Shown here: positions 1-7,817 of the stretch, piece after piece | Position numbering within the stretch: position 1 is the first letter of the stretch | Layout: each line of letters begins with the position of its first letter | From: a virus | Lineage: Duplodnaviria > Heunggongvirae > Uroviricota > Caudoviricetes | IMG/VR virus record: IMGVR_UViG_3300028888_005256 | Length of the DNA stretch: 64,000 nt | Reading direction: 5' to 3' (one strand) | Position numbers and translations under genes: made by a program | Notes under the pieces: model-generated | Told to the model about the DNA's origin: nothing | Database searches by the model: none | What the model saw: only the letters and a program-made list of their open reading frames with translations

Positions 1-76
1 TTACTGCTTTTTCAATTTTTTCGTTTTCCTGAAGATCTTCGTCTCTGTCTTCAATGTTATTTGTGCTGAAAGCCAC
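1..76 (-). CDS. 5' end of a gene running off the window start (GTG start, MAFSTNNIEDRDEDLQENEKIEKAV...)
   Basis: GTG at 76-74, GGAGG RBS at 88-92 and ACTAATTTT motif at 100-104 on the minus strand; frame open to position 1; not in the ORF track. Confidence 0.6.
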   Translation of the reverse strand, partial: MAFSTNNIEDRDEDLQENEKIEKAV

Positions 77-121
77 TTCTAGTGTTTCCTCCGAAAAAAT
101 TAGTTTTTTAACTAAAAAGTG

Positions 122-155
122 AAAAAAAAAAATCCCTGCTGTAAAAAGCAGGGAT
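122..155 (-). terminator. intrinsic terminator ending the 185-3125 minus-strand operon
   Basis: ATCCCTGCT-gtaaaa-AGCAGGGAT hairpin with an A-run on its left (U-tail on minus). Confidence 0.8.
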
Positions 156-184
156 GCTGTGTTTCGTTTCTAAAAAATTAGCTA

Positions 185-1078
185 TTAGCTAGCTAACGCT
201 TTTGAAATTAAGTCTGGGCTTCTTTTCATTGCTTTTGCAAGGTCTTCCATGTCAATGTCATGCTTCTGGAGCTGGTCTAAAAGAACTCCATCTTTTCCAG
301 CAATCTTGTATCTTACGATATTTCCGCCAATATTGTACTTGCTTGCAATGTTCATAAGAGACTCACCTGCAAAGATATCTGCAGCAATTTGTCTAAGAGG
401 ATATTCTGAATTCAACTTGTCAAAATCTTTCCCCATAGACTTGAGCTTTTCAAAGATCTCATAGTCTTCATCGTCTACTGAATACATGTTGTTTGATACT
501 TGAGAAGCAATTTTATCCCATCCGAATCCAGCTCTTTTGCCTTCCTCTTCATCTACTGCATCAGGATGGACCTCATCAGTGTTAAGCTCAGAAATTTTGC
601 CATTTTCTGATCTGCACATCATGTCAAGATATCCGCCAAAGTAGTACTGCCAACCACCAATCAAAGCCTGCATGCTTTTTGATCTGGTGTAGTCGAATCC
701 TGTACCGCCACGGCCATGCTCACTTGCGCCAAAAAGAGCTCTATTAGCAGCCTCAAAACAAAGACCATAGAAAAGCTCCATGTCACCGTTTGCAATTCTT
801 ACAGGCCAGAATTTTTTCTCTGGTCCAAGAAACTTTGCTCTTGAAGACATTATTCTCATAAATGCAAGAGTAAGAAGAACCTTCATTCCTGTATCTGAAA
901 TTTTTCTTGCGTTCTTTTCTGTCTCAAAGAGTGCTTTCAATGATTCAAAAGTCTGGCCTCTTACAAGCTCAATAACATTATCATTGATGCCGAAATACTT
1001 TTTGAATGCTTTTGTCCAGGGATTCTCTGAGTTCAATGCACTTAGAATGCCTTCAATATCTCTATAATCTTTAGCCAT
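185..1078 (-). CDS. hypothetical protein, possible C-terminal helix-turn-helix
   Basis: 297-aa ORF with GGAG RBS; C-terminal GESLMNIASKYNIGGNIVRYKI is HTH-like. Confidence 0.6.
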   Translation of the reverse strand: MAKDYRDIEGILSALNSENPWTKAFKKYFGINDNVIELVRGQTFESLKALFETEKNARKISDTGMKVLLTLAFMRIMSSRAKFLGPEKKFWPVRIANGDMELFYGLCFEAANRALFGASEHGRGGTGFDYTRSKSMQALIGGWQYYFGGYLDMMCRSENGKISELNTDEVHPDAVDEEEGKRAGFGWDKIASQVSNNMYSVDDEDYEIFEKLKSMGKDFDKLNSEYPLRQIAADIFAGESLMNIASKYNIGGNIVRYKIAGKDGVLLDQLQKHDIDMEDLAKAMKRSPDLISKALAS

Positions 1079-1106
1079 CTCTTAATCTCCAGTCTTGTAT
1101 TTATAT

Positions 1107-1394
1107 TTAGTTTGAATTTATTTTAGAGAATAGATCAATCAGTTCATCTTTCTCTATTGTAGACATTCTCTTAATCAATTCATCTGAATTTATAATTTCA
1201 TTTGCTATGCTCGGGAGTCTATCACCGAAGCTATGTCCCACACTCAAAACTAAACCAACACTTATGCATTTGTCGTGCAATTCATGTAAGTCTTCAGCAC
1301 TTATGTTTCCGAAATCTTTAGATAGTCGAGCAGCAATCTCATGCAACTCATTGAGTCGTTTTTTAACTATAATTTTATATTGATCGAAAATCAT
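1107..1394 (-). CDS. hypothetical protein
   Basis: 95-aa ORF abutting its neighbour in the operon. Confidence 0.6.
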   Translation of the reverse strand: MIFDQYKIIVKKRLNELHEIAARLSKDFGNISAEDLHELHDKCISVGLVLSVGHSFGDRLPSIANEIINSDELIKRMSTIEKDELIDLFSKINSN

Positions 1395-1811
1395 CTAAAA
1401 TCCTTTAAGATAGAAATTGTCTACTTCTTTGCTCTTGACAAATCCGCATCGTTCGTAGAAACTCTGCTTTTCATCACTTGCATATAAAGTCCATTTGTTT
1501 GCTCTTGTCAAAGACTTTATTATTCTAGTGCCATGACCGATATTTCTTAAGTCTTTACTCACTTCAAAAACTGAGATATGTACTGAGTCTGGAAGCACTG
1601 ATTCTTGCCTAAATGCTATGAAAGCTAAAAGCTCATCATCTTCTGTTATAGCAAACCACTGAATCCACTTATCATCTAGATAGCAGTCATCTTTTTCAAG
1701 GTATTCCATGACCATAGGAAAGTTTTCGCAGACGCCTTCATAAAAAGAGAGAAAACTTTTGCAAGATGGGAAACATTCTAGCTTTATCATTTTATTTTCT
1801 GTGCCAACCAT
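1395..1811 (-). CDS. GNAT-family N-acetyltransferase
   Basis: acetyl-CoA motif A (FEVSKDLRNIGHGTRII) and motif B (FYERCGF). Confidence 0.8.
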   Translation of the reverse strand: MVGTENKMIKLECFPSCKSFLSFYEGVCENFPMVMEYLEKDDCYLDDKWIQWFAITEDDELLAFIAFRQESVLPDSVHISVFEVSKDLRNIGHGTRIIKSLTRANKWTLYASDEKQSFYERCGFVKSKEVDNFYLKGF

Positions 1812-2182
1812 TCAAGAGCTGTTTCGTCCTCAAGTCTCAAATACTTTTCGTACTGAGAATAGAGAACACCTGAAGAACCATAATCTTCTCTTAAATACTT
1901 GATTCTATTTTCTGAGTATCTGTACTGCTTGAAAATTTTCTTAGCTTGCTCGTATGTCTTCAAGTTCAATTGATATGTCAAGCAATCTCTAAAGACTTCA
2001 ATGACACCTGTCATTCTGAAGTTCGACAAATCTGACTTAAAGAACTCTTGAGCTATCGCGCAAAGCTCTGCTTCCTCATCTATGTAGTCTTCAGGCACAC
2101 GAGATAAAAGACGACTTTCTAGATATGTTTGTGAAATCTTATCGAGAGACTTCATTCTCAACTTGACTTCACTTATTTTCAT
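1787..2182 (-). CDS. hypothetical protein
   Basis: 131-aa ORF overlapping both neighbours in the operon. Confidence 0.6.
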   Translation of the reverse strand: MKISEVKLRMKSLDKISQTYLESRLLSRVPEDYIDEEAELCAIAQEFFKSDLSNFRMTGVIEVFRDCLTYQLNLKTYEQAKKIFKQYRYSENRIKYLREDYGSSGVLYSQYEKYLRLEDETALEWLAQKIK

Positions 2183-2787
2183 AGCAATATCCCTGTAGAA
2201 AAGAGCTCAGCAGTCTTAAAATGCTGGAGCTCTTTGTTTTCGTAGCCTTCTGCGTCTTCCTCTGCTTGAGAGTTCAATTCATCACCAAGACCACTTGTTG
2301 GATCGTCTTCAGTAATATCGTCTGCATCTTCAACAATAACTTCAGGCACTTCAGCAGCTGTCATCTGTCTTGAAGAGTTTTTGTAATCAATCTCTTTATG
2401 CCAGAATCTGCTTATAGAGTTTACATATTCTGCATCATGACTTTTAAGTTCTTCAAGATTGTCAAAAGCATCTAAAAGAAGTTTACCTTTCTCACTAAGC
2501 AAATCTGTAAACTTGTCCCAGTCATAGAGTTCTTTATCATCAGGCTCCCACTGAGAACGATCGACGTATTCAAAAACTTTTGCAAGATTGTGTACAGACT
2601 CTCCAAGTGCAATAGCCATTTGAGACAATTCCTGAATTTGGAAATAAGACTCTTCTCTCAGAGTAGTAGCAATCTGTCTTATTCTGTCAAACTGCTCGCC
2701 AGCTGCATGAAGATATGCATTCTGCAATTCCATGTCAAATAGATGCAAACAATATATAAGGTAGCTCAATGTTCTTTTCTCATTCAT
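2179..2787 (-). CDS. ferritin/Dps-like four-helix protein with acidic tail
   Basis: YLHAAGEQFDRIR...EESYFQIQELSQMAIALGE resembles the Dps pattern HW..G..F..LH...EE.Y....D..AER...LG. Confidence 0.45.
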   Translation of the reverse strand: MNEKRTLSYLIYCLHLFDMELQNAYLHAAGEQFDRIRQIATTLREESYFQIQELSQMAIALGESVHNLAKVFEYVDRSQWEPDDKELYDWDKFTDLLSEKGKLLLDAFDNLEELKSHDAEYVNSISRFWHKEIDYKNSSRQMTAAEVPEVIVEDADDITEDDPTSGLGDELNSQAEEDAEGYENKELQHFKTAELFSTGILL

Positions 2788-2801
2788 TTATAAGTCTCCT
2801 C

Positions 2802-3125
2802 TTACTCTACATCTGTAAGATTGCTCTTTACTTTTTTAGGGTCAAGAGTCTTTACAATCTCGCTAATAGCAGCTTTTTCAGAATCTTTGATTTGTTCTGC
2901 AACGCCTTCAGACTTCTCATCAGCCTTATAGTCACTCAAATCATCTTGTGCTTTTGCTTGTGCCTCTGCTTGCTGCTTTGATTTATTTGCTGCACCAGCA
3001 TAAGACAAAAGTTGAGAATGAACTTCTTCTTTTACATTATCGTCTTGTGCATTAAGTCCAGAAGCTTTTGCTACTTTATCAACAATCAAGTCAGTAACAG
3101 CTTCAATCATTCTAAAACTATTCAT
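2802..3125 (-). CDS. hypothetical acidic/alanine-rich protein
   Basis: 107-aa ORF with ACTAATTTT motif just upstream of the ATG. Confidence 0.65.
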   Translation of the reverse strand: MNSFRMIEAVTDLIVDKVAKASGLNAQDDNVKEEVHSQLLSYAGAANKSKQQAEAQAKAQDDLSDYKADEKSEGVAEQIKDSEKAAISEIVKTLDPKKVKSNLTDVE

Positions 3126-3150
3126 AGAAAATTAGTAAAAGACTTTAAAA

Positions 3151-3271
3151 TTATTAATTAATAATTAATTAAATAGCTAGCACCCAACCAATTTTTATCT
3201 TAGCGCGTAGCGCCATTAATAGTTGACGAATTGGTAACCTAATGATAACATTTGTTAACCATAGGTAACAA
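3151..3271 (+). repeat. dispersed bipartite element copy E1 (core 3213-3234) with extended GNTAAC array
   Basis: AT-rich (TTAA)n + TAGC, 35-nt spacer, CCATTAATAGTTGACGAATTGG, then TTGTTAACCATAGGTAACAA at 3252-3271. Confidence 0.9.
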
Positions 3272-3282
3272 ATTAAGAAAGT

Positions 3283-3315
3283 TTGAAAAATTGTTAATCT
3301 TTTTATTATATTATT
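3283..3315 (+). promoter_or_regulatory. sigma70-like early promoter (TTGAAA ... TATTATATTATT)
   Basis: the same TATTATATTA motif precedes genes at 12018, 26751(-), 33988, 34330, 45990(-) and 58247. Confidence 0.55.
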
Positions 3316-3344
3316 TATGTAATTCTCTAAAAAGAGGTTTTTGA

Positions 3345-4256
3345 ATGAAACAGAAAATAAAATCTTTGATTCACAATGGACCAATCTTCCCGCAGAGAAA
3401 AGAAATTAAAGAAACAGTTCTTGTAGCTGGTTCTGATCTTTCTCCACTTGCAAAAAGAATGATTTACAAATGGGCTGCACTTTCTGAGACAGACTACGCA
3501 AAAGACGCTGTTTTCCAGAAAAACTTCTATTCAAACTTTAAGCTTGAACTTTCTGCTGAGCAGAAAAAATTGAAGTTCCCTGAAGATTGGCAGTCAATTA
3601 TTAAAAACATTAAGTCTACCCTTGACAAGCAGAAAGAACAAACCGCTCAGTATCGCAAAGAACATAAAGAAGAGATTGCTAAAGAAAAAGAGCTTATGAA
3701 AGAAAAATATGGCTGGGCTCTTGTTGATGGCAAAAAGCAGCCGCTTGGTGGTTATCTCATTGAAGATGAGGGAATTTTTATTGCTCGTGGAGATGCAGTC
3801 CATCGTGGGTGCTGGAAATACGCTGTTCTTCCTGAAGATGTTACGATAAACTTTATCGGACCGAAGAAAGACATTCCTGCTGCACCCGAGGGACATTCAT
3901 GGAAAAAAGTCGAATCAAACAATAATTCACTCAATGCAGTTACCTACAAAGTAAGTATTGGCGGAAGATTTTATGTAAACAAAAAAATTCGACTTGGTGG
4001 AAATTCAGACCAGCAGATTGCTAAAACGCAGCTTAAGTTTGAAAAAGCTAAAAAACTCTCTCAGAATTGGGATAAGATGGTAAAACACATCGAAGAAGGT
4101 CTCAAGTCTACTGAGATGAAACGAAAGCAATCAGCTTTAGTAGCTTGGCTCATTATGAACACAGGCATTCGAGTTGGTGCTGAAGTCTCTGAAGACATGG
4201 ATGCTGGAATTGAAGGTGCATCTACTTTGAAAGTAAAGTCTATTCAGTGGAAATAA
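3345..4256 (+). CDS. DNA topoisomerase IB, eukaryote/archaeal-type, N-terminal (core DNA-binding) half only
   Basis: HNGPIFP, VFQKNF, YGWALVDG, EGIFIARG..HRGCWK, PEDVTIN, PEGHSWKKV, KFEKAKKL, GIRVG (first catalytic Arg), GASTLKVKSI; stops before the remaining catalytic residues. Confidence 0.8.
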   Translation: MKQKIKSLIHNGPIFPQRKEIKETVLVAGSDLSPLAKRMIYKWAALSETDYAKDAVFQKNFYSNFKLELSAEQKKLKFPEDWQSIIKNIKSTLDKQKEQTAQYRKEHKEEIAKEKELMKEKYGWALVDGKKQPLGGYLIEDEGIFIARGDAVHRGCWKYAVLPEDVTINFIGPKKDIPAAPEGHSWKKVESNNNSLNAVTYKVSIGGRFYVNKKIRLGGNSDQQIAKTQLKFEKAKKLSQNWDKMVKHIEEGLKSTEMKRKQSALVAWLIMNTGIRVGAEVSEDMDAGIEGASTLKVKSIQWK

Positions 4257-4261
4257 GAATT

Positions 4262-4290
4262 AAGCTGGCATTTACGCCAGCTTTTTCTTT
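4262..4290. terminator. bidirectional intrinsic terminator
   Basis: AAGCTGGC-atttac-GCCAGCTT plus T-run between convergent genes. Confidence 0.8.
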
Positions 4291-5025
4291 CTATACACAG
4301 ATTCTTGTAATGCTGTTGAGATTCTGACCATCACAACAAATAGCTGCTTCACTATCAGTCGCTACAAGATATTTGTTGCTGTGACCAAGAACGATTTTTT
4401 GAGCTGAGAATTCTATAACAGGCGTTGTAATCTGTATTCCTGTACTTCTCATATTTATTTGAGAATATTGTCTATTTCCTGTTCCGACACCATTTCTAGC
4501 AGTAAGAACTATGCTATCATCACCTATGAAAATCATAGAACCATAACTGTTCATTATCCATTTTGCACCTGTCTTAATAGACATAAACTCTACAAGAGTG
4601 TTGTTCGGATTTTGTAAAGTTACACTTAGGTCAGAGTAGTTCATTTCAGAAACTTCTGAAGAGTTTCTTTCTGCTACTTGCAAAGATTCCTCATAGTTCC
4701 AGCTACCGACCATAGCTTTGCTGTACTCACCAAATACATTTGCAGGACCGAGCACATAGCCAAAAGTAAAATCATAATTTGCAATAACCCAAATCAAATC
4801 ACCTGACTTTGTATCTGGATTAGGGTTTATTTCAGTGTAGTACTTTGGTGCTTGGCCTTTGAACAGAGGCGGATATATTGGCAAGTAGTCTAAGTCATTT
4901 CCGTCTAAGTCGGCCATAAATGGCAAGATTCTGACTTTAAGTCTATCATCACCATTCGACATGCTATCATAGACTCTTGCTTTATAGAGTTTTAAAGTAT
5001 CATTTTGCTCATTCATTATTAGCAC
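4291..5025 (-). CDS. baseplate spike / gp5-VgrG-like OB-fold protein
   Basis: YKARV...DDRLKVRILP...GDLIWV.....YVLG OB-fold pattern, beta-rich C-terminus, position after hub gene. Confidence 0.55.
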   Translation of the reverse strand: MLIMNEQNDTLKLYKARVYDSMSNGDDRLKVRILPFMADLDGNDLDYLPIYPPLFKGQAPKYYTEINPNPDTKSGDLIWVIANYDFTFGYVLGPANVFGEYSKAMVGSWNYEESLQVAERNSSEVSEMNYSDLSVTLQNPNNTLVEFMSIKTGAKWIMNSYGSMIFIGDDSIVLTARNGVGTGNRQYSQINMRSTGIQITTPVIEFSAQKIVLGHSNKYLVATDSEAAICCDGQNLNSITRICV

Positions 5026-6308
5026 TCCTGAAGCATTGAAGGCATTGTCAAAGTTGTTTTATTTGCATCATACAAGAATGTCGGTCTTCGAACAGTTAGG
5101 GTTGTTGTCATAATCTCATTAGGCTTGTCTAGAATATGACGAACTGCTTTCACATTCCATAAGCCGCTAATCCAGTGAATTTCTTTCTGAGGAACTGATA
5201 CTGTTCCATCTGGGTTTAGAGCAGGAAAGAATAGATTTATATTGTCACCAGTCTTCAAGTCTGGTCCAGAGAATCTTCCTGAGATGCTAAGCGTGAACAA
5301 ATCATAGAAATTGCCAAGTGAAGACTTTACTGAAGCTAATCCGTCTTTCGTCAAAGAATCATATTGAGCTTTTTTCGCTGTGCAGTCAAGCTTTCCCAAA
5401 TACGAAATAGCTACAGGCATTTTATTTCCAACCATGCTCAAGCTGTTTATTTTTATCTGAGGCGCAAAAGTGCTCCAAACAGTTGAGCCTGCAATTGACT
5501 GACCGTCTGACAAAACGTCTATTTTCAAATTGTCAATGATTCTGCTGTAGTTCTCATCATTCACATTAAGCTTCATAGAATTGTACATAAAGACATTATC
5601 TGCATTGTCGTTCACGAGATCTTTCATTAAGTCTCTGTACTCAAGAATTGAAGGTTCATAAGCTGCTACAGCTACATAGTCTTTTCTGAAGAGATTATTG
5701 AATGTTGTCAAATGCGGTCTATTTACTTCATCAATCCAAAAAATTGGAGGATCTCTATTTATGAGTGTATTTGGAAGTATCTTATTCAGAATGAAGTCTT
5801 TATCTGATTCACAAACCATGTATCTCGGCTGTGAGCCAGACTCATCTGACTGTTCAATCAAGTCTCTGTCTATATTAAATTCCCATGATCGTCCGCTTTT
5901 TCCCAATATGTCTAGAATTATCTCAGAGTTACATTTGTCATGGAATATTTTTGATGAGTGCTCTTTAAAGAATTCCCAAGGATGGACTGCTAAGATCTGG
6001 ATAGCTCCTGTAAGTCGAGACATGTTCTCAAAAGCGTCACCAATAGCAGAGATTCGTAATTCACAAAATTTGTTTAGAGCTCTGCTAGGGTTTGTCTGTC
6101 CCTCAATCTCGTCAACAACTGAAAATCTTACTACTGAGCCTATTGCTAGATTATAGAATCTTGATAACTTTTCTCCGCTTTTGTCATTGATGACAAATAT
6201 CGCTTTCGGAAAACCTGTGTCTATATCACAAGTATACTCAAAAGAGAGTATATCTTCTGTCTCAATTCTTTCATTTTCAATAGCCAAGAGCAGTCTTGGG
6301 TTTACCAT
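5019..6308 (-). CDS. baseplate hub protein (gp27/gpD-like)
   Basis: ESDKDFI; C-terminal GDNINL...ISGLWNVKAVRHIL...TTLTVRR typical of hub proteins; tail module context. Confidence 0.55.
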   Translation of the reverse strand: MVNPRLLLAIENERIETEDILSFEYTCDIDTGFPKAIFVINDKSGEKLSRFYNLAIGSVVRFSVVDEIEGQTNPSRALNKFCELRISAIGDAFENMSRLTGAIQILAVHPWEFFKEHSSKIFHDKCNSEIILDILGKSGRSWEFNIDRDLIEQSDESGSQPRYMVCESDKDFILNKILPNTLINRDPPIFWIDEVNRPHLTTFNNLFRKDYVAVAAYEPSILEYRDLMKDLVNDNADNVFMYNSMKLNVNDENYSRIIDNLKIDVLSDGQSIAGSTVWSTFAPQIKINSLSMVGNKMPVAISYLGKLDCTAKKAQYDSLTKDGLASVKSSLGNFYDLFTLSISGRFSGPDLKTGDNINLFFPALNPDGTVSVPQKEIHWISGLWNVKAVRHILDKPNEIMTTTLTVRRPTFLYDANKTTLTMPSMLQEC

Positions 6309-6314
6309 TAAAAT

Positions 6315-6641
6315 TTACTCCTCATCAGTTCCAGGCAATTTCTGAGTTGCAAAATTACTTAAGTCAGATGCTTTAATAAGAAACAAGACATCACCAGGTC
6401 TCATTGTTCCAATGTACGGAACATTGTTTATGTTCAAGAGAATATCGTCTAAATATGTGATACCATACATGTCGTACATCCAAGACCAAAGTTTCTCTAA
6501 GTCTGCAGATGTCATTTGGACGTGCTTCGGGATCTCAGTCAATTGCACATCATTGTATGTGACACTTAATGGGTCTGGAAAAGCCTCCCCGTCTATGTCT
6601 TTTGCATTTGACTCACTCATGTAGTCATATCGACTAGTCAT
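6315..6641 (-). CDS. baseplate wedge / tail-X (LysM-like, gp53-like) protein
   Basis: DILLNINNV....MRPGDVLFL LysM/tail-X-like pattern; between tube initiator-like and hub genes. Confidence 0.45.
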   Translation of the reverse strand: MTSRYDYMSESNAKDIDGEAFPDPLSVTYNDVQLTEIPKHVQMTSADLEKLWSWMYDMYGITYLDDILLNINNVPYIGTMRPGDVLFLIKASDLSNFATQKLPGTDEE

Positions 6642-6644
6642 ACT

Positions 6645-7817
6645 TTATTCTCCATCAAAAAAGCCAAGAGGACTTGCTTGCATTTCATCAGATTGTCCTT
6701 TACCAGCTTTCATAATATTGTCCAAACTCTGATTAGAACTGAATGCAATAGATGCAAATGAATCTCTTGTTGCAGTAACGAATCCTTTGATACCAGAAAT
6801 TGTTATAGAGCCCTTTGCAGGCCAGCCATATTCATCTAGTAAAGATGTATCAAAGTTAACATTTACGCCTTCTATAGTGCAAGGACCAAAAGAGAACTTT
6901 CCAAGTCTTATGTTCCAAAAAGCATATTTTCCACTTTTAATGACTTCAGCACTTCCCTTTCTTAGCACTTTGTAGTAGTCTGTAAGAATAGTTTCTGCAG
7001 CATTTATAGCAGAAGTTGTAGCATCACCAGCTGTTGCAGAAGACAATGCATCGCCAGAGAGAAGCTTTTTTGCATTATCTCTTAAAGCTGAGCCTACTCC
7101 TGAAATATATGAAGCTGTGAACTCAGACTTTGTGGGATAAGGCGTTATGTACTTTCTGTCAAGGTCTGATTTTCCAGATTCTGCTCTAGGAAGTGTTATG
7201 TTTCCTAATGCCATGATAGGCTTCACAACCTCTTCTAGTCCTGAAAACAATCCATACTGTCCAAATGAAAAGTCAAATTCGAGAGAACCATCAATCTGCA
7301 ATGACGATGCTTCACCAAACAATCGAGGCTTTGTGTACGGTGAAAGTCGAGTAGATGCGACTCTATCATCTTTGCTTCCAATGCCAAATGCTTTCAATGT
7401 TTCAAGAAGATCAGTTGCTTTGTCAGCAAAGCCTCCTACACCACCAAATGTATTTGCATCTTTTAAGTCAAGATTATACATTATCTTAAAGCTCTGATCT
7501 TTCGGAAAAAGTGCTACATTTTCATGAACATCAAACAATCCATTTACAGAAGCTTTTTTCCAGTTGTCAAGTTGTGAAGCATTTGCCACTGTAGCAGGAG
7601 AACCAATTGAGATAAAGCATCGTTTATTGAGATTATAGTGCTTTGGCAAATTGTCGAGAATGCGTCCGTCATTACTCATCTCATAAGAAGAACTGTACTC
7701 AACGGGACTGGTCTCTGAACTACCGTCATTCTTAGTATTTAAGTGAGATGTGCCTGTTATTGATGCTTTTTTAGAGCCTGCAATTGCTTCTGCAAGCCAC
7801 TCATTTATTCCTGACAT
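6645..7817 (-). CDS. putative tail tube initiator / baseplate protein (gp48/gp54-like)
   Basis: GPCTIEGVNVNFD...GWPAKGSITIS tube-fold-like strand pattern; directly after the tape measure gene. Confidence 0.4.
   Translation of the reverse strand: MSGINEWLAEAIAGSKKASITGTSHLNTKNDGSSETSPVEYSSSYEMSNDGRILDNLPKHYNLNKRCFISIGSPATVANASQLDNWKKASVNGLFDVHENVALFPKDQSFKIMYNLDLKDANTFGGVGGFADKATDLLETLKAFGIGSKDDRVASTRLSPYTKPRLFGEASSLQIDGSLEFDFSFGQYGLFSGLEEVVKPIMALGNITLPRAESGKSDLDRKYITPYPTKSEFTASYISGVGSALRDNAKKLLSGDALSSATAGDATTSAINAAETILTDYYKVLRKGSAEVIKSGKYAFWNIRLGKFSFGPCTIEGVNVNFDTSLLDEYGWPAKGSITISGIKGFVTATRDSFASIAFSSNQSLDNIMKAGKGQSDEMQASPLGFFDGE

Follow-up and report, generated by a model that had tools for sequence, protein, structure and literature searches.

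A long-type topoisomerase IB divided between two genes in an uncultured phage of about 326 kb from the sheep gut

Introduction

Topoisomerases IB (Top1B) of the long, eukaryotic type were stated in 2016 to occur among prokaryotes only in Thaumarchaeota, and the Caldiarchaeum enzyme is made as one chain (PMC4824112). In Leishmania the enzyme is split in the linker, with the catalytic Arg-Lys-Arg-His set on the large subunit and only the Tyr on the small subunit, and complementation by fragments of human and yeast Top1 has also been achieved at the linker (PMC2063514). Phage genes, in turn, are split by free-standing homing endonucleases: mobE in nrdA of Aeromonas phage Aeh1 and mobA in the topoisomerase II genes 39/60 of T4 are free-standing HNH genes in essential genes, and the two polypeptides that result come together, with no splicing, to form a composite active site (PMC2988022, PMC3045599). 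Here we analyze an open reading frame (ORF) in a 64,000-nt stretch of phage DNA (IMG/VR record IMGVR_UViG_3300028888_005256; hereafter the window). A first-pass annotation, made from the letters alone, had described this ORF as a eukaryote-type Top1 that stops halfway, being either a split enzyme or a catalytically dead DNA clamp. We report that the missing catalytic residues lie in a second gene of the same phage, and that the window ORF very probably encodes the large subunit of a two-chain, long-type Top1B.

Results

The window ORF holds the DNA-binding module and one catalytic residue of a long-type Top1B

The product of the ORF (the N-half) matched PF02919 over profile positions 2-207 of 213 (E 3.8e-38), a near-full cover of the CAP/DNA-binding module, and its top PDB matches were Caldiarchaeum TOP1 (6Z01, E 7e-36) and human Top1 (E 1e-31), in agreement with the long eukaryotic/thaumarchaeal-type core that the first-pass annotation had recognized. 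The catalytic domain was present in part: PF01028 matched at profile positions 6-81 of 228 only, the alignment to Caldiarchaeum and human Top1 ended at the equivalent of human I512, and the ORF itself ends in ...KVKSIQWK-TAA. The first catalytic Arg, R276 in the motif GIRVG, was the only one of the catalytic residues found, and equivalents of K532, R590, H632 and Y723 were all absent, as the same annotation had noted. A further invariant residue, R148, we take to be the equivalent of human R364, which contacts the DNA minor groove at the lip. Searches of the entire window by tblastn and with hidden Markov models found no C-terminal Top1 part.

A second gene of the same phage carries the remaining catalytic residues

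At a related locus (L002; L and P numbers are our handles for loci or contigs and for proteins), a further gene, bearing PF01028 and PF14370, comes after the N-half. A search with this C-terminal half (C-half) retrieved a family of free C-halves that includes P0046, encoded on a 326,521-nt contig (L015) on which the genes 3' of P0046 are those of the window. A second assembly, L016, likewise links the C-half gene to window positions 1-3230. The catalytic half that the first-pass annotation had proposed to search for is therefore found on L015 and not in the window. The C-half gene precedes the start of the N-half by 6,083 nt, so that the gene order is reversed, and nine genes stand between the two: one for an NAD-dependent ligase and one other on the same strand, and seven on the opposite strand.

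P0046 matched PF01028 at positions 87-227 and PF14370 (linker and C-terminal Tyr domain, E 7.5e-14). As its PF01028 match continues where that of the N-half stops, the two halves are complementary. The alignment of P0046 to human Top1 runs from E526 through the end of the protein, which places K11, R69, H112 and Y218 at K532, R590, H632 and Y723, respectively; all four are invariant in 11 C-halves. The pentad of R488, K532, R590, H632 and Y723 is thus complete only with both genes together, and the single polypeptide usual for long-type Top1B is replaced by two genes. The P0046 gene has its own GGAGG Shine-Dalgarno site and ATG, every C-half has a Shine-Dalgarno site and start codon of its own, and among the further C-half clusters retrieved with P0046 (n=33) 30 open with a Met 7-13 residues before the GKD motif. 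Residue 217 of P0046, just before the catalytic Tyr, is Ala, where the human enzyme has N722, a residue of camptothecin sensitivity. The residue at this place varies in L014 and L085-L087 (Ala, Asn and Cys-adjacent variants), and the L007 C-half has Ser instead of the D533 equivalent.

In human numbering the break falls at about 515/522, inside the catalytic domain and between R488 and K532. The alignment shows that the two parts are joined by a beta-hairpin turn in fused relatives, and that split pairs together equal the fused protein in length, having neither lost residues nor gained a tail. Co-folding of the two halves, which the first-pass annotation had suggested as a check, gave a score of 0.80 compared to 0.18 for the best control, with a run agreement of 95% of contacts and a partner pLDDT (predicted local distance difference test) of 90; 58 of 80 solved complexes attain the co-fold mark, as do 2 of 110 mismatched pairs. 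In the model the strand that ends the N-half (299-301) lies beside the one that begins the C-half (5-7), and the R276 helix packs on the C-half core, with about 200 contacts in all. Because one-chain Top1 structures have been solved, a pass was to be expected and may stem from likeness to them, and we read the co-fold as model evidence for the complementarity of the halves, not for their binding.

The break is conserved and the N-half is under purifying selection

In a protein search, relatives of the N-half from about 25 clusters had lengths of 300-313 residues, shared 36-57% identity with it and ended at the same motif, which answers the first-pass question of whether homologues stop at the same place. 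The stop is contig-internal, and hence real, in the window and in L001, L002, L006, L007, L014, L015, L017, L050, L055, L070, L071, L083, L084/L085 and L086; it recurs in L083, a strain sequenced independently in a different run, and in contigs from further runs that span it. Compared to L083, its nearest strain, the N-half has 51 synonymous and 5 non-synonymous changes, a ratio of non-synonymous to synonymous rates (dN/dS) of 0.022, which is comparable to that of a neighboring structural gene (0.032); the ratio was 0.036-0.11 for other split N-halves and 0.08-0.10 for most fused pairs. The conserved stop and this low ratio show that the N-half is not decaying: full-length relatives do exist, yet there is no sign of the relaxed selection that would have accompanied loss. 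Furthermore, both halves occur together at seven loci (L002, L007, L014, L015, L017, L085 and L086), never one beside a degraded partner.

Relatives carry fused, adjacent, interrupted and dispersed forms

The gene occurs in several architectures. It is fused in, for example, L005, L048, L049, L051, L053, L059 and L074. In L002 and L017 the halves are separated by an HNH/NUMOD3 homing endonuclease gene (matches to phrog_655, E 3e-34 and 8e-38), in L007 they are 38 nt apart, and in L014, L085 and L086 two unrelated genes lie between them. The window's phage has the dispersed and reordered form, and C-halves without a nearby N-half were found in L087 and L088. A 5'-nucleotidase-like (NT5C) gene stands between the halves in two separate lineages (L014:9439-9936 and L086:4200-4850).

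Comparison of split and fused alleles revealed a distinct tract around the break. Between L017 (split) and L051 (fused) the flanks are 97% and 94% identical and the tract around the break 60%; between L002 (split) and L049 (fused) the values are 82%, 59% and 90% for flank, tract and flank. The two split alleles, L002 and L017, are 89% identical within the tract and 75-76% outside it. From -120 to +192 nt around the break, limits that were chosen after inspection of the data, 80 of 82 informative sites group by architecture, whereas outside them 179 of 179 group by lineage. The tract of L049/L051 groups with their fused sister clade L053/L054 (support 97/96), and the split tract is therefore the incomer. 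Judged by these sequence comparisons, the ~310-nt tract around the HNH gene in L002 and L017 is a signature of co-conversion, that is, of homing into fused alleles.

A tree of the N-terminal flank rejected the split alleles as one clade (p of the approximately unbiased test, p-AU, 3e-6). With L002 and L017 removed a single split clade was not rejected (p-AU 0.09), nor was it on the tract itself (p-AU 0.51). These trees were built on DNA-verified loci. An earlier set had labeled short database proteins as split, several of which derive from fused genes cut off at contig ends (clearly so for P0042, probably for P0015, P0025 and P0043), and the change counts of 11 and 8 drawn from that set were discarded.

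Large T4-like phage contigs outside the gut clade (L003, L025, P0023, P0031 and P0032) also carry fused long-type Top1B, so that the enzyme is broader in phages than its split form. Some fused phage versions have long insertions in the CAP module (L005:9896-11917, L059 and P0025), with an open frame of up to 673 residues. Many giant-virus (GVMAG) contigs among L021-L047 encode a one-chain long-type Top1B, and in the trees these group as a sister to the sequences from phages and archaea.

Phage setting and expression signals

The window is AT-rich phage DNA (37% GC) with genes for a tail sheath (phrog_23), tape-measure-like and baseplate-like proteins, nrdD and SbcCD-like proteins, and with Shine-Dalgarno sites and sigma-70-like promoters. 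The sequencing run that matched it best is a sheep gut metagenome, and its sequence is present on public contigs of ~326 kb; the phage is an uncultured myovirus of about 326 kb from the sheep gut. A search of GTDB genomes with one peptide pattern as the only query gave no match. The idea that Top1B is the sole topoisomerase of these phages failed, since G003, a split-type genome that is complete, encodes a type II subunit as well. Directly 3' of the C-half gene lies the gene for the NAD-dependent DNA ligase (L015:10861-11952), whose 363 residues comprise adenylation and OB domains only; in L003 the BRCT part of the ligase is a separate gene, possibly another split enzyme.

The coordinates of the features are collected in Table 1. 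The N-half gene has a promoter-like site, a terminator-like hairpin and a convergent neighbor of its own, as the first-pass annotation had stated. The -10 core of its promoter segment is of the general promoter type in this phage. A common promoter and a 20-bp repeat, considered as a regulator specific to the two halves, were rejected because both types recur across the window. In the nearest strain the terminator hairpin is flipped to its exact reverse complement (L083:945-966), a micro-inversion that keeps the stem. Contigs from RNA libraries, which may include DNA, lie over the N-half gene in three runs, and a gap over the promoter region is only a weak hint of transcription, which these contigs do not prove.

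Table 1. Features of the two Top1B genes and their surroundings. Positions refer to the window unless a contig is given.
Feature	Position	Strand	Remarks
Top1B N-half gene	3345..4256	+	303 aa; CAP module, hinge, first part of catalytic domain; human ~217-515
Codon of R148	3786..3788	+	invariant
Codon of R276 (in GIRVG)	4170..4172	+	corresponds to human R488 (catalytic); no variation among 27 N-halves
Last beta-strand and stop, conserved break point	4236..4256	+	beta-hairpin turn; the C-half protein begins with the other strand of the hairpin
Promoter segment TTGAAA-18-TATATT	3278..3321	+	93% identity over 45 columns to segment before C-half gene (L015:9934-9978)
Promoter-like site	3283-3312		10/12 matches
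Shine-Dalgarno-like AGAGG	3333..3337	+	7 nt 5' of ATG
Bidirectional intrinsic terminator-like hairpin	4262-4283		z = -6.1; begins 5 nt past N-half stop; common to convergent gene ending at 4291
20-bp intergenic repeat	3213..3232	+	twice also before C-half gene; 7 further places in window
20-bp repeat copies, window	3213, 11317(-), 24091, 24195, 34227, 37355(-), 56437, 62714(-)		eight in total
20-bp repeat copies, L015	2855, 9760, 9888		
Stretch identical to L015:13534-20795	1..7261	+	no mismatch, one gap; N-half identical
C-half gene, P0046	L015:10001-10795	same as N-half	264 aa; outside window; ends 2,738 nt before window base 1

Discussion

A probable two-chain enzyme

By far the most likely reading, in our view, is that the two proteins are made separately and pair 1:1, restoring the catalytic domain, and that this heterodimer would relax supercoils as any Top1B does, with R276 acting in trans. 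Both halves would be expressed separately from promoters of the same class. On assembly the final strand of the N-half would pair with the opening strand of the C-half, and the R276 helix would pack on the C-half core; K11, R69, H112 and Y218, the nucleophile, would thereby receive R276 in trans. The heterodimer is predicted to clamp DNA and to nick one strand via a 3'-phosphotyrosine, allowing ATP-free relaxation of positive and negative supercoils, presumably during phage replication and transcription.

Some observations weigh against this reading or against the origin proposed below. For six N-half loci (L001, L006, L050, L055, L070 and L071) no C-half was found in the DNA searched, which is fragmentary, and for the window itself the C-half sequence was taken from a separate, near-identical assembly. 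The Ala at the N722 position may make activity lower or altered, and it would predict resistance to camptothecin. The window's own lineage (L014, L015, L085, L086 and L087) has no endonuclease between or beside the halves, and a single origin of all split alleles, followed by homing, is allowed rather than shown by the trees.

The missing partners at those six loci and in the window, together with a whole CAP module inside the N-half, are what one would expect if the N-half worked alone as a catalytically dead DNA-binding clamp, whether or not a C-half is present. We consider this very unlikely, because a C-half with intact catalytic residues is encoded by the same phage and R276 is invariant. 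Moreover, the N-half ends in half a catalytic domain with a hydrophobic face that, in the model, is covered only by the C-half, and an identical break point in all lineages fits complementation and not trimming. Of the two options in the first-pass annotation, the split enzyme is thus supported and the dead clamp is not. Decay or an assembly artefact, to which the many fused relatives might point, has a negligible probability given that the same stop recurs in independent runs, that dN/dS is so low, and that the break has been kept across diverged clusters. It is also highly improbable that the halves end up in a single polypeptide, whether a split intron is trans-spliced, a split intein acts or ribosomes bypass the gap as in T4 gene 60. 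Phage introns often start with a stop codon, and the halves of L007 lie only 38 nt apart; however, Rfam finds no intron family in L002 or L001, neither half has an intein-like extension, and each C-half starts with its own ribosome-binding site and start codon. In L002 only 30 nt separate the N-half stop from the endonuclease ATG, and the endonuclease stop abuts the Shine-Dalgarno site and ATG of the C-half. In the window's phage the terminator follows directly on the stop and the C-half gene lies upstream, beyond nine others, and RNA-library contigs, with the proviso on DNA given above, cross the stop collinearly without a joint.

The remaining alternative accepts the two-chain enzyme and concerns its origin only: the gene may have been split without an endonuclease, by a point nonsense mutation and the gain of a start codon, as in L007, with later invasion by the HNH gene. 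An endonuclease is present at only two of the seven loci with both halves and is absent from the window's lineage, for which an endonuclease origin is accordingly not shown; the same ambiguity has been acknowledged for the split gene 43 of Aeromonas phages (PMC2988022). Against this stands the tract that travels with the endonuclease, which is centered on the break and replaces fused alleles. Endonuclease genes are, besides, commonly lost after fixation. We regard a split without an endonuclease as a possible but somewhat doubtful origin.

We think it probable that the split arose by insertion of a free-standing HNH homing endonuclease at the hairpin turn, followed by homing, loss of the endonuclease and dispersal. 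The hairpin turn would be the one spot that tolerates a break, and homing of the HNH gene would have spread the split allele; the lineage of the window would then have lost the endonuclease, with the gap filled by other genes, and the halves would have drifted apart and changed order. On a wider and more tentative view, which we find about as open to doubt as to belief and lean slightly against, a large clade of uncultured giant gut phages has a eukaryote-type Top1B not catalogued in phages before, which a mobile HNH cassette converts, lineage by lineage, to a heterodimer with an active site that is complete only once two independently expressed chains come together, with all split alleles derived from one event and the halves now forming a stable, separately regulated two-subunit enzyme.

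Significance

Such an enzyme would be the second natural two-chain architecture in the family targeted by camptothecins, with a break that has not been described before. A cut between R488 and K532 would then be one that the catalytic domain of Top1 can bear, which makes this position a candidate for the design of split-Top1 tools and for uncoupling the clamping of DNA from its cleavage. The long-type Top1B, used as an archaeal-eukaryotic hallmark, is extended to bacteriophages, which bears on the origin of the enzyme. Finally, the related loci may display every stage in the conversion of one essential gene to two by a selfish endonuclease, from the fused gene through the interrupted one to loss of the endonuclease and dispersal of the halves.

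Comparison with known systems

Neither half matched any of 50,697 GenBank phage records (tblastn) or any PHROG, and no paper describing a phage Top1B of the long type, or a split one, was found in the literature, most subscription journals lying outside the search. The short topoisomerase IB of poxviruses, mimivirus, bacteria and the jumbo phages Lu11, PaBG and phiRSL1 (PMC7824862) shares type IB chemistry in a virus, but this short type lacks the large CAP module. With human TOP1 (PDB 1K4T) and Caldiarchaeum CsTOP1 (PDB 6Z01) the phage version shares PF02919, PF01028 and PF14370, the catalytic pentad, the coiled-coil linker and the C-terminal Tyr domain; it differs from both in its two genes and two chains, in being bacteriophage-encoded and in the Ala at the N722 position. 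The first-pass annotation had cited kinetoplastids and Caldiarchaeum as precedents for a two-gene Top1: the former hold, but with the split elsewhere, and the latter does not, its Top1 being a single ~63-kDa chain of 539 residues. The kinetoplastid heterodimer (Leishmania LdTopIL/S, PDB 2B9S) is likewise a natural two-gene, two-chain long Top1B with unlinked genes. In contrast to it, the phage break lies inside the catalytic domain, with one Arg on one chain and Lys-Arg-His-Tyr on the other, and the phage split is of independent origin.

The closest precedents are the phage genes split by free-standing homing endonucleases, with which the Top1B genes share the lack of a self-splicing intron or intein and a second half with its own start. 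Whereas NrdA-a and NrdA-b of Aeh1 need interaction tails, the Top1B halves have no added tails. Moreover, compared to the mobE and mobA systems, the phage Top1B belongs to a different enzyme class, type IB, and the whole series from the fused gene to adjacent, interrupted and dispersed or reordered halves is visible among its relatives.
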